Origin: an uncultured Candidatus Saccharibacteria bacterium
Lineage (GTDB): Bacteria > Patescibacteriota > Minisyncoccia > Phycocordibacterales > JBBTRF01
DNA: 64,000 bases
Direction of reading: 5' to 3'
Assembly (NCBI GenBank): GCA_964602975.1
Contig: CAZRTH010000001.1
Location: 70,303-134,302 of the forward strand
Within the stretch, counting starts at the first letter, position 1. The number at the start of each line of letters is the position of its first letter. The notes beneath the pieces were generated by a model. That model saw only the letters and a program-made list of their open reading frames with translations. It did no database searches and was not told the DNA's origin. Made by a program: the position numbers and the translations under genes. Shown here piece by piece: positions 41,795 through 44,764 of the stretch.

Positions 41795-44764
41795 TTATCC
41801 CGCCACGACCACGCTCACCAACTTCCCTTTTACGACGATAACTTTCTTCACTGGCTTGCCTGCGATCCACTTCTGCACTTCCAGCAAGGCCAGGGCAAGC
41901 TTCTCCAAGTCAGCATCCGTCGCGTCGCTCGGCGCGGCAAATTCCGCTCGCACCTTGCCATTCACCTGCACGCCGATCTTACGGCTGGCTTCGCGGATTT
42001 TCGCCTCGTCGCAGACCGGCCAGGCGGATAGATGGATACTTGTTTTGTTGCCAAGCTGTGCCCAAAGTTCTTCTGACATATGAGGTGCAAAAGGTGCGAG
42101 CAGTTTCAAGAACGTTTCATATTGTTCCCGGGACACGCCGGCAGCTTGCTCGTCCAGCGCATTGAGCAAGATCATCATTGTGCTGATCGCGGTGTTGAAT
42201 TTCATTTCCGCGATGTCCGCCCCAACTTTTTTAACAGTCTTGTGTAGCAAGGACTCCAATTCACTAGTCGGGACAGCGACAGAAGTGGAAGCGGGGGCGG
42301 AAGTGGCGGTCACCTTCCCTGCCAGTTTCCACACGCGCTCCAAGAAGCGACGTGAGCCGATCATGCTGTTGGTGTTCCACGCGATCTGTTGATCGAACGG
42401 ACCCATGAACATTTCATATACACGCAAAGTGTCGGCACCATACGTAGCAATGATCTCGTCCGGATTCACGACATTCCCCCAACGCTTCGACATCTTTCTG
42501 CCATCTTCGGCCATGATGAGTCCGACATGCTGGAGCTTTTTAAATGGCTCGGTGGTTGAGACGACACGAATGTCGTAGAGGAATTTGTGCCAGAAGCGAG
42601 CGTAGATCAGGTGGCGTGTCGCGTGCTCTGCCCCACCGACATAGAGATCAACCGGTGCCCAATACTGCTCCGCTCGAGGATCGACAAGCGCCTTTTTGTT
42701 GCGCGCGTCCATGTATCGCAAGTAGTACCAGCTTGAACCCGCCCATTGCGGCATGGTGTTGGTCTCGCGACGAGACTTGCCACGACACTTCGGACACTTG
42801 GTGTTCACCCACTTTTCGATCGCAGCCAAAGGCGACTCACCAGTGCCAGTTGGCTCGTATGACTTCACCTTCGGGAGTTTCACTGGCAGGTCTTTTTCGG
42901 GAACAGGTACAACCCCGCACTTCTCGCAATGCACCACAGGGATCGGCTCGCCCCAATATCGCTGACGTGAGAACACCCAATCGCGGAGGCGGTAGGTTGT
43001 TTTCTTGGTGGCAAGATTCTTCGACTCGAGATAAGCAATGATCTCATTTCGCACGCCGCGCGCGTTTTTACCGGCAAATTCTTTCGGCTCGGACAGAATA
43101 CCTGTTTGAGCATCGGCAAAACATATTTCCTGTTTACGCACCTTTTCAGCAAGCGCTTCGTCCTTCGGATACAAAACTGTCTTGAGTGTGATCCCGTATT
43201 TCTTGGCGAAAGCAAAGTCGCGCGGGTCGTGCGCAGAACACTTCACGATACCGGTACCGTAGTCGGCCAAAGCAAAGCTCGCAACCCAGATCGGCAGATC
43301 GCCATTTCCAAGCGGATCGACGATGTAGCGGCCAGTAAAAATACCTTCAGATTCTTTTTCTTCAGCAAATCCCTGCTGCGCGCGCTTTGCAACCAAGCCA
43401 GCAGAGAAGTCGAGAACCTTCTGTTTGTCCTTTGTTCCCTCGAGCAAGGTTGACAGAAACGGATGATCCGGAGCGATGACGACAAATGTGTCGGCATAGC
43501 ACGCCTCGAAGTGTGCGGAGAATGTCTGGATGGTGAGGCTTGTATCTTTCACAGGTGCAGTGAAGATCATGCCGTCGCTCTTACCGATCCAATTCCGCTG
43601 AAGCTCTTTAATAGAGGTCGGCCAATCGAGCGCGGGCCGTCCAGCCTTCGCCTTGCCGATGAAAACATCCCAGAGATAATTCATGTCCGGACGATTCAAA
43701 AAACCGGCAACCTCCGCACGCGGCAGCCAGACCACTTCGTGAAGTGCCTTCTCCTTTTCATCAGCATCTTTCCACGCGTCATCCACGAGCTCGAGATACA
43801 CGCCGGTGAAATGCGCGAAGCGATTCACTTTTTTGATCGCCTGATAAAATTGGGAGTCGATCTGACCGAATTCGCGGACAAACCGGACATTCTGATAGCC
43901 AGTCTCCTCTTGCACTTCGCGCATCGCCGCCTCAGCGAGTTGTTCGCCTTTTTCTACGCCGCCAACTACAAGACCATGCCAATCATTACTCTTCCAACGC
44001 AGACACAAATACTTGTCTTCAGACCAATGCTTCACGACGCACACGACGGCATTTCGCTCCTCTAGCGGCAGGCCGGGGCGCACTGCGTCGGGGCCAGAAT
44101 CACGGATCATGAGGGGCTTTTCTGTCGCATCCAGATCAGCCAGCAGTCGCTCGGCATAATCAGTGATCTTCAAGACCCACTGACGGATGGGCTTTTTCTC
44201 CACGACGCTACCACAGCGTTCGCACTTGCCATCCTCGAGATCCTCGTTGGCAAGACCGGTCTTGCAGGAAGGACACCAGTTGATCGGCTCGTGCGATTGA
44301 TACGCTAGACCTTTCTCGAGCAATTTCAGGAAGATCCATTGCGTCCACTTGTAGTAGGCGGGGTCGGTGGTGTTGATCTCTCGCGACCTGTCATAGTCGA
44401 AGCCGAACATCTCGAGCTGCTCCTTGTAGCGCTGAACGTTCTTCTCCACAGCGATCGCCGGATTGGTCTTCATCTTGATCGCGTAGTTTTCTGCTGGAAG
44501 GCCGAAAGCGTCAAAACCCATCGGGTGCAGCACCGAATGACCTTGCATGCGCTTCATACGCGACACAACATCGGTAGCGATGTAGCCCTTCGGGTGACCG
44601 ACATGGAGACCTTCACCGGATGGATACGGGAACATGTCGAGGACGTAGAAGGCGTCTTTCTTCGCATCCTCCTTGGTCGCGTAGATCTTTTTCTTCGCCC
44701 ACTGCTTCTGCCACTTGTTCTCTATCTTCGAGTGATCGTATGCGGGCAGTTTCTGCGATTTCAT
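41795..44764 (-). CDS. leuS: leucine--tRNA ligase with an inserted Nudix hydrolase domain
   Basis: 989 aa; HIGH-type motif [13 protein letters not shown], ZN-1 CPSCKTG..CERCG, CP1 editing domain, KMSKS region; Nudix box [23 protein letters not shown] at res ~268-290. Confidence 0.95.
   Translation of the reverse strand: [989 protein letters not shown]

Follow-up and report, generated by a model that had tools for sequence, protein, structure and literature searches.

Introduction

Bacterial aminoacyl-tRNA synthetases are highly conserved, and the accessory domains known in them are, to our knowledge, concerned with tRNA binding or amino-acid editing. Bacterial leucyl-tRNA synthetases (LeuRSs) of the Escherichia coli and Thermus thermophilus type, described by the family model TIGR00396, have the HIGH and KMSKS signatures, a ZN-1 zinc module followed by the CP1 editing domain, and anticodon-binding and C-terminal domains. 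All of these are shared, with CP1 again following ZN-1, by the LeuRS encoded by leuS in a 64,000-nucleotide (nt) stretch of contig CAZRTH010000001.1 (assembly GCA_964602975.1) from an uncultured Candidatus Saccharibacteria bacterium, referred to here as the window and used for all coordinates. The window protein differs from this type in having an extra 166-residue Nudix enzyme domain in the linker between ZN-1 and CP1, and in having a CP1 without the canonical threonine-rich motif.

Most synthetases produce diadenosine tetraphosphate (Ap4A) and related dinucleotides when the AMP of an acyl-adenylate is passed to ATP or a different nucleotide; Nudix enzymes such as NUDT2 break these products down (PMC4856261). 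No description of a Nudix domain within a LeuRS was found in the open-access literature that we searched, although absence there is not proof that none exists. The proteins are known as public sequences with Pfam matches; what appears to be undescribed is the breadth of the architecture, its use of several insertion sites and copies, its operon link, and its parallel in prolyl-tRNA synthetase (ProRS).

Here, we describe the domain inserted in the window LeuRS and the subfamily to which it belongs. To judge from its sequence and those of its relatives, it is very probably an active Nudix enzyme that is coupled to LeuRS and maintained under selection.

Results

A complete Nudix domain within leuS

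The product of leuS matches TIGR00396 (leuS_bact) with 966.7 bits against an equivalog cut-off of 548.4, but in two stretches, with a break at model positions ~206/378. The gap is filled by a match to PF00293 (NUDIX) at residues 240-352 (E 2.2e-13; 50.8 bits, gathering score 21.1), and the insert alone matches the same model with E 1e-14 and 55.1 bits. In an alignment with P0008, the closest LeuRS that has no Nudix module, the insert stands precisely where P0008 has a linker of six residues (LLADL-DSQTFS-LDWP in P0008, LLADLD-[166 aa]-LDWP in the window protein), so that both the placement between ZN-1 and CP1 and the boundaries given in the first-pass annotation of this DNA were right. The translated insert starts with ATEKP and ends with AGRPA. 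The gene, the module and its box are as follows:

41795-44764, minus strand: leuS open reading frame (ORF), bacterial-type LeuRS with embedded Nudix domain, 989 amino acids (aa), no interruption

43631-44128, minus strand: Nudix module at the position referred to as site A, 166 aa (residues 213-378), lying after the post-ZN-1 helix and before the CP1 linker

43895-43963, minus strand: Nudix box, residues 268-290, G268-X5-E274-X7-R282-E283-V-x-E286-E287-x-G289-Y290

Translation of the last interval confirms that this metal-binding and catalytic box is complete (GX5EX7REUXEEXGU), as had been claimed. All seven signature residues are present, and the last 'U' is a Tyr, as it is in 83-96% of related modules at sites A and B and in free-standing proteins (described below).

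The same annotation held that the insert is a whole Nudix fold and not filler, and structure prediction agrees with the Pfam match on this point. AlphaFold2 models the module alone (from a 42-sequence module alignment) at a predicted local distance difference test score (pLDDT) of 93.7, as a beta-grasp/alpha sandwich with REVQEE on helix 276-288; in the full-length LeuRS (pLDDT 86.4) the insert scores 82-94 and has the same structural elements. The modelled insert thus has the alpha/beta/alpha sandwich, with the box on a loop-helix-loop, by which the Nudix superfamily fold is recognised, and on these models we regard its Nudix fold as certain.

A Pfam scan of the insert gave no domain besides NUDIX, and no direct or inverted repeats were found at its borders (43631/44128). 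An insertion of the intein or transposon type was rejected on the grounds that the insert has neither additional domains nor intein- or transposase-like sequence and is not flanked by repeats; the mechanism of insertion was therefore not that of a classical mobile element.

The insert is an authentic and constrained part of LeuRS

The unusual length of the protein is the one thing that prompted us to consider an assembly chimera or a frameshifted fusion of two genes, and no support for either was found. The ORF is continuous and in frame, and G+C content is uniform over the insert region. Three other assemblies (one NCBI genome and two Logan runs) have an insert at the same site with 90% amino acid identity, and in all three leuS has a YchF GTPase gene upstream and a gene for a sigma70-region-4/HARE-HTH protein downstream, as is also the case in the window. 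When the window is compared with these relatives, synonymous sites prove to be near saturation (pS 0.62-0.78), while nonsynonymous differences in the insert are few (pN 0.067-0.068 with pS 0.72), giving a ratio of nonsynonymous to synonymous rates (dN/dS) of ~0.03-0.04, compared with 0.014-0.031 for the synthetase core. Because pN is low while synonymous sites are nearly saturated, the insert is a protein domain under strong purifying selection, about as strong as that on the synthetase core. With the intact frame, even composition, syntenic independent assemblies and low dN/dS, and with hundreds of homologous fusions elsewhere, we rejected the chimera or frameshift, which has next to no probability; the misassembly that the first-pass annotation had proposed to check for is in practice excluded.

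In the relatives, syntenic small ORFs lie between ychF and leuS and are called as two genes, of ~86-88 and 121 aa (loci L001 and L003). The window ORFs at 44907-45509 (plus strand), 45635-46018 (minus) and 47178-48521 (plus), which flank leuS and ychF, have no Pfam match.

A narrow Nudix subfamily carried mainly by LeuRS

An exhaustive HMMER search with the insert against 1.84 billion cluster representatives returned 446 proteins at E <= 1e-3, and because only these match, the subfamily is a narrow one. (The insert by itself gave no matches in a word-indexed homology search, which reflects the sensitivity limit of that method.) A profile hidden Markov model of the module was built and every module was mapped onto an insert-free LeuRS (P0055), yielding 325 modules in 268 proteins, distributed as follows:

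Site A, the site used in the window: 107 modules, with a tandem pair in 26 proteins

Site B, a loop inside CP1: 155 modules

Other LeuRS loops: 8 modules

Proteins without a LeuRS-core match: 55 modules

Further insertion points in LeuRS lie at ~240 and ~486-505. In the last class, several of the proteins that are 270-390 aa long are fragments of LeuRS editing domains, and the rest are mostly free-standing proteins of 150-200 aa. All long matches have a LeuRS core or editing domain apart from four: a ProRS, two multi-Nudix proteins, and a protein of 282 aa in which Nudix is the only Pfam domain. Some LeuRSs reach 1,500 aa or more and have five inserted modules.

Among LeuRS cluster representatives, 102 of the nearest 120 have one to three modules (site B alone 30, A alone 26, AB 23, AAB 14, AA 9, none 18). 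The first-pass annotation had called a synthetase with a Nudix module unusual; this holds in comparison with textbook bacteria but not within the Paceibacteria/Parcubacteria, where these 102 of 120 clusters make it the majority state. A survey of relatives, which it had proposed, showed the site A form in other genomes and also arrangements that it had missed and that are relevant to function: modules in CP1 and at further sites, in tandem, free-standing beside leuS, and in a clade of ProRS.

Scanning one genome per species, we found at least 228 species that encode the module subtype of the window, a lower bound given that a narrower alignment limited to this subtype was used. Where labels are informative, nearly all are Paceibacterota/Parcubacteria (Taylor-, Nomura-, Vogel-, Kaiser-, Adler-, Jorgensen- and Zambryskibacteria); labels of metagenome-assembled genomes are partly unreliable, and at some loci the label reads Saccharibacteria, Gammaproteobacteria or Nanoarchaeota. 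In all 80 species-genome loci that were kept the module lies in a LeuRS ORF, and among these (80-81) the architectures are B in 58, AB in 12, A in 5, AA in 4 and AAB in 2. The single site-A form seen in the window is therefore a minority architecture (5 of 81 loci) of a very common feature. Public annotation gives these proteins just as 'leucine--tRNA ligase' or 'class I tRNA ligase family protein', and a predicted second enzymatic activity is thus missed by annotation pipelines.

Conservation of catalytic residues

In each positional class of the 325 modules, residues E283, E286, E287 and G289 show a conservation of 88-100%. Among the 319 complete modules, 306 (96%) keep the Glu triad and 232 have all seven signature residues. 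With the dN/dS of ~0.03, the retained triad lends indirect support to a predicted hydrolysis, dependent on a divalent cation, of nucleoside diphosphates linked to X. The subfamily has near-invariant residues of its own – R237, W262, K311, N314, R315, L326, E338 and W346 – and a conserved N-terminal extension (P.F...G.DA.R..P..ER), and both are also present in the free-standing members.

Some modules suggest a non-catalytic alternative, in which the Nudix fold would be retained for nucleotide sensing, regulation or a structural role. The second copies of tandem site-A pairs (class A2) systematically depart from the signature, usually with E274Q and a variable R282, and 13 modules have lost a catalytic Glu. 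The window module is not among these, however, with its seven signature residues in place, and a Glu triad kept in 96% of modules would be hard to explain without catalysis. We regard a non-catalytic module as very improbable, and a pure sensor role is unlikely because the catalytic glutamates are conserved.

Free-standing members and a second synthetase host

Some free-standing members of the subfamily lie near leuS. Seven free-standing members were looked up, and the neighbourhood statistics rest on these seven. Three are co-oriented with leuS and directly abut it: the TAA stop of P0133 is followed after a 2 nt gap by the start codon (ATG) of a leuS without an insert; P0163 is separated by 2 nt from a downstream leuS that itself holds an internal module, in the same YchF...leuS...sigma70-region-4 synteny as the window; and P0137 lies 10 nt upstream of leuS. 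Three of seven is far beyond chance. A fourth, P0132, is 2.4 kb upstream of an insert-free leuS, and no aminoacyl-tRNA synthetase gene was found near P0151 or P0168. The fusions and the adjacency to leuS are together a Rosetta-stone plus conserved-neighbourhood argument for a functional link, which the gene arrangements thus predict.

The P0132 locus (L088, GCA_023245955.1, 1482-10389) contains a MetRS-like gene, TatD, P0132 itself, an HD/YfbR-like 5'-nucleotidase, a second Nudix gene and the insert-free leuS. The second Nudix is of another subfamily and lies 5 nt upstream of leuS. This cluster is possibly a 'nucleotide clean-up plus synthetase' neighbourhood.

The ProRS noted above (P0242) is a class II synthetase in which the module separates the anticodon-binding domain from the C-terminal domain, and four more ProRS clusters (P0271-P0274), 61-74% identical to it, have the same arrangement. 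These ProRSs are of the archaeal/eukaryote type, and the nearest relatives without the insert bear the labels Nanoarchaeota or Woesearchaeota (DPANN). The ProRS form is an independent fusion, to an unrelated class of synthetase.

Features of the synthetase that carries the insert

Pfam places tRNA-synt_1 at residues 17-785 of the window LeuRS. Its other features are as follows, with invariance judged in a 50-sequence alignment:

44594-44605, minus strand: HIGH signature of the class I catalytic core, H54-V-G-H57, all four residues invariant

44213-44275, minus strand: ZN-1 zinc module, C164-x2-C167...C181-x2-C184, with C164, C181 and C184 invariant

43028-43597, minus strand: CP1 editing domain (PF13603), residues 390-579, Pfam E 1.5e-38, 'type I' variant

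43103-43174, minus strand: site B loop in CP1, residues ~531-554, empty here and Nudix-occupied in most relatives

42482-42496, minus strand: KMSKS signature, K757-M-S-K-R761, with K757, M758 and K760 invariant

41921-42259, minus strand: anticodon-binding-type helical domain (PF08264, Anticodon_1), residues 836-948, Pfam E 5.6e-24

Because all of the LeuRS signatures are kept, the protein should still charge tRNA-Leu. In CP1, a degenerate segment at residues ~422-438 (~43450-43500) stands in place of the threonine-rich motif FTTRPDTLFGVTY (FTTRPDTLFG); D513 is present, in the motif AHDPRD where AHDERD is canonical. Nudix-free relatives with a type I CP1 have the same degenerate motif, and post-transfer editing may be altered in the window lineage.

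Elsewhere in the window, the AlaRS gene (30717-32600, minus strand) encodes only 627 aa, comprising the catalytic domain and tRNA_SAD, and the C-terminal parts of typical bacterial AlaRS seem to be missing. A minus-strand ORF at 9083-15004, beside the dnaJ/dnaK/grpE region, encodes 1,973 aa with an N-terminal signal- or transmembrane-like segment.

Mosaic evolution of LeuRS

Module subtypes are not sorted by insertion site. The cluster that contains the window module (45% identity threshold) has 32 site-A and 28 site-B modules, and the window module is 55-59% identical to site-B modules and 56-62% identical to site-A modules outside its immediate clade. A history of one ancient insertion per site was rejected because the subtypes do not segregate in this way.

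The LeuRSs of close relatives are themselves mosaic. For P0004 and P0005, identity to the window protein is 92-96% in the N-core, Nudix module and C-core but falls to 46-47% in CP1; the Nudix-free P0008 is 85% identical in the N-core, 83% in CP1 and 93% in the C-core. At least three CP1 types circulate in the clade of the window. From these identities it follows that whole domains recombine and that the module has been gained or lost recently, and CP1 and the Nudix module behave as exchangeable cassettes among close relatives.

Other domains are also found within these LeuRSs. A Ham1/ITPase-like domain takes the place of Nudix at site A in P0049/P0051 (residues ~217-357), HAD_2 lies in the CPKC... 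zinc loop of P0005 (684-838) and also of P0007/P0034, and a serine/alpha-beta hydrolase lies inside CP1 of P0026 (412-574) and also of P0037/P0045/P0063. P0102 has an insert of ~140 aa after HCGEC with no Pfam match.

These diverse hydrolases, the patchy gain and loss among close strains and the domain-scale recombination resemble an arms race, and they raise the idea of LeuRS self-protection, in which the Nudix module – and the HAD, alpha/beta-hydrolase and Ham1 domains of relatives – would degrade nucleotide antibiotics that mimic the adenylate. GNAT, HIT and peptidase enzymes detoxify aminoacyl-nucleotides of the microcin C type, and NCBIfam has a model for isoleucyl-tRNA synthetase (IleRS) with an embedded GNAT (NF040702). 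The case is purely analogical, however; dN/dS in the insert is low, with no sign of diversifying selection, and the pyrophosphate bonds that Nudix enzymes target are mostly absent from such inhibitors. We consider self-protection highly unlikely.

Similarity to characterised Nudix enzymes

The best structural match of the module model in a Foldseek search is 2azw. The figures for other structures are 14.6 for AvrM14, 14.4 for the Thermus Ap6A hydrolase Ndx1 and 14.0-14.2 for DIPP1/DDP1, and the diadenosine polyphosphatase Rv2985, mycobacterial MutT1 and the Ap4A hydrolases of Aquifex and Chlamydia also rank high. Behind 2azw, enzymes acting on long polyphosphate bridges are over-represented among the structural neighbours. 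When PDB sequences were searched with a profile, AvrM14, NUDT12, lupin Ap4A hydrolase, 2azw and NudC matched at E 3e-8 to 4e-6, with Dcp2 also present; the AvrM14 match (E 3e-8) spans the C-terminal two-thirds, with the K..R and W motifs included. With the module, all NCBIfam equivalogs score far below their cut-offs, the best being the MutT1 model NF052459 (29 bits, cut-off 475) and RppH (27-29 bits, cut-offs 116-118). The window module cannot be assigned to any characterised Nudix subfamily.

The decapping enzymes that rank high in the profile search (AvrM14, NUDT12, NudC and Dcp2) suggest a different role, in which the module would be an RNA-end pyrophosphohydrolase of the RppH, NudC or Dcp2 kind, acting near LeuRS on triphosphate, NAD or Np4N caps, possibly those of tRNA-Leu precursors or mRNAs. 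Two multi-Nudix relatives have Nudt16-like Pfam matches, and both hosts, LeuRS and ProRS, bind RNA. These similarities are nonetheless all weak (14-25% identity) and are common to Nudix enzymes that do not act on RNA, and no extra RNA-binding element is evident in the modelled ~160-aa module. Mature bacterial tRNAs, moreover, have a 5' monophosphate after RNase P cleavage and would offer no obvious substrate on the synthetase. We think such a role improbable.

The window has a separate Nudix gene, as the first-pass annotation had noted, at 55492-55974 on the minus strand, encoding 160 aa (PF00293, E 1.4e-15) of a different subfamily. It was rejected as a donor or paralogue of the insert because its match to the module profile spans only the generic box. 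This gene lies tail-to-tail with a CYTH-domain (triphosphate tunnel) gene at 54732-55481 on the plus strand, 10 nt away.

Discussion

The explanation that we find best as a whole, and advance tentatively, is that the insert is a competent Nudix hydrolase coupled to LeuRS that clears nucleotide compounds derived from the adenylate. A narrow Nudix subfamily would act together with LeuRS, in trans where a small gene immediately before leuS encodes it, and in cis where it is spliced into a surface loop of the synthetase, as in the window. The domain would remove a nucleoside-diphosphate-linked compound that is made by, or interferes with, the adenylate chemistry of the synthetase. The common ground of LeuRS and ProRS is the ATP-dependent formation of an aminoacyl-adenylate and the binding of tRNA. 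The likeliest substrates would be dinucleoside polyphosphates (Np(n)N, such as Ap4A and Ap3A), formed when ATP or another nucleotide attacks enzyme-bound Leu-AMP, and a tethered hydrolase would destroy them at source in cells that have few stand-alone enzymes. We favour Np(n)N over other substrates because synthetases form dinucleotides of the Ap4A type and because the structural neighbours of the module other than 2azw are often enzymes that cleave long polyphosphate bridges, but this assignment is doubtful. Nudix enzymes cleave a pyrophosphate linkage, and hydrolysis of misactivated aminoacyl-adenylates by the module, which the first-pass annotation had suggested beside Ap4A-type dinucleotides, is unlikely because these have an acyl-phosphate anhydride instead.

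Several observations weigh against this explanation. Identity to Ap(n)A hydrolases is no better than that to decapping or MutT-like enzymes, minimal Nudix folds resemble one another generically, and the best structural match is itself uncharacterised. With at least four insertion points, and with subtypes mixed among them, a precise geometry relative to the synthetic site would not be expected, and up to three divergent copies per LeuRS suggest several substrates rather than one. The Ham1-type nucleoside triphosphate (NTP) pyrophosphatase at the same site in relatives would fit generic sanitation at least as well. The domain should also be dispensable for aminoacylation, because Nudix-free alleles exist in very close relatives. 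Lastly, the free-standing P0153 starts 4 nt past an Fpg/MutM DNA glycosylase gene (locus L090, GCA_013565575.1, 4016-5513), and some members may serve in the sanitation of oxidised guanine.

Many of the same observations favour the main rival, generic nucleotide house-cleaning – of oxidised or non-canonical NTPs, or of ADP-sugars – with no link to aminoacylation. LeuRS would then be a scaffold: an essential, constitutive protein with insertion-tolerant loops in the CP1 region, serving a minimal genome as a carrier for expression and stability. The independence from position (A, B, ~240 and ~486-505), the mixing of subtypes, the one to three divergent copies per protein, the insertion of other hydrolases in relatives (Ham1/ITPase-like at site A, HAD_2 and serine hydrolase), the proximity of P0153 to Fpg/MutM, the variable presence of the module among near-identical LeuRS alleles, and the weak best NCBIfam matches to MutT1 and RppH all count in its favour. 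Two observations stand against it. Host specificity is extreme, being restricted to LeuRS and the ProRS clade, whereas a scaffold predicts many kinds of essential host; and three of the seven free-standing genes lie directly upstream of leuS in a translationally coupled position, which is evidence from the operon of a functional link that arose before the fusion or alongside it. We hold house-cleaning unconnected with aminoacylation to be possible but unlikely.

The presence of Nudix in the LeuRSs of most members of a large uncultivated class, in the leuS operon and in ProRS points to a selective need for coupling aminoacylation to the removal of some nucleotide compound, in cells that are ultra-small and metabolically minimal. 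Were the substrate Ap4A or a dinucleotide like it, there would be a direct physical link between the makers and the removers of alarmones and RNA-cap precursors. More broadly, and with less confidence, the paceibacterial LeuRS and the ProRS clade could be a modular platform on which Nudix and, in relatives, HAD, serine-hydrolase and Ham1 domains are repeatedly gained, lost, duplicated and shifted from one surface loop to another through recombination of whole domains, as a layer of 'metabolite proofreading', a rather unlikely proposition as it stands. If true, by-products of the adenylate (Ap4A-type alarmones and cap precursors) or nucleotide toxins directed at the synthetase would be destroyed at source, an unrecognised accessory function of aminoacyl-tRNA synthetases that is distinct from amino-acid editing. 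These LeuRSs are also a natural experiment in domain insertion, with several sites, one to three copies and the swapping of whole CP1 domains, and they include natural alleles with and without Nudix whose N-core, CP1 and C-core are 83-93% identical.

Comparison with known systems

The Ap(n)A hydrolases with which the module can be compared (Aquifex aq_158, 3i7u; Thermus Ndx1, 1vc8; Mycobacterium tuberculosis Rv2985, 9cxx; Chlamydia CT771, 4mpo; and human NUDT2) are 17-24% identical to it. Such hydrolases are among its top neighbours, interspersed with MutT1, DIPP, decapping enzymes and NTPases. None of these hydrolases is embedded in a synthetase, and its own invariant residues and N-terminal extension set the module apart as a separate subfamily. 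A Tyr 16-18 residues past the Nudix box is said, in work by Dunn and colleagues from 1999, to mark Ap(n)A hydrolases; F306/Y307 of the window lie 16-17 residues past Y290, and the position is Phe or Tyr in most modules, but the marker is not specific.

The Enterococcus faecalis MutT/Nudix protein 2azw is free-standing and only 19% identical to the module; it comes from structural genomics, has no assigned function and thus offers no substrate information. AvrM14 (8dp8/8dp9) is a eukaryotic protein, an effector secreted by flax rust, which reportedly hydrolyses mRNA caps according to McCombe and colleagues in 2023, and NUDT12, NudC, Dcp2 and RppH are further Nudix enzymes of the decapping type.

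Among synthetases, NCBIfam has no exception model for a LeuRS with Nudix, the sole LeuRS match being to the generic leuS model, in two parts. The precedent is the IleRS with an N-acetyltransferase domain (NF040702, ileS_w_GNAT), in which a class Ia synthetase likewise carries an unrelated small-molecule enzyme domain; it differs from the window protein in both parts, the domain being a GNAT and not a Nudix fold, and the host being IleRS and not LeuRS.

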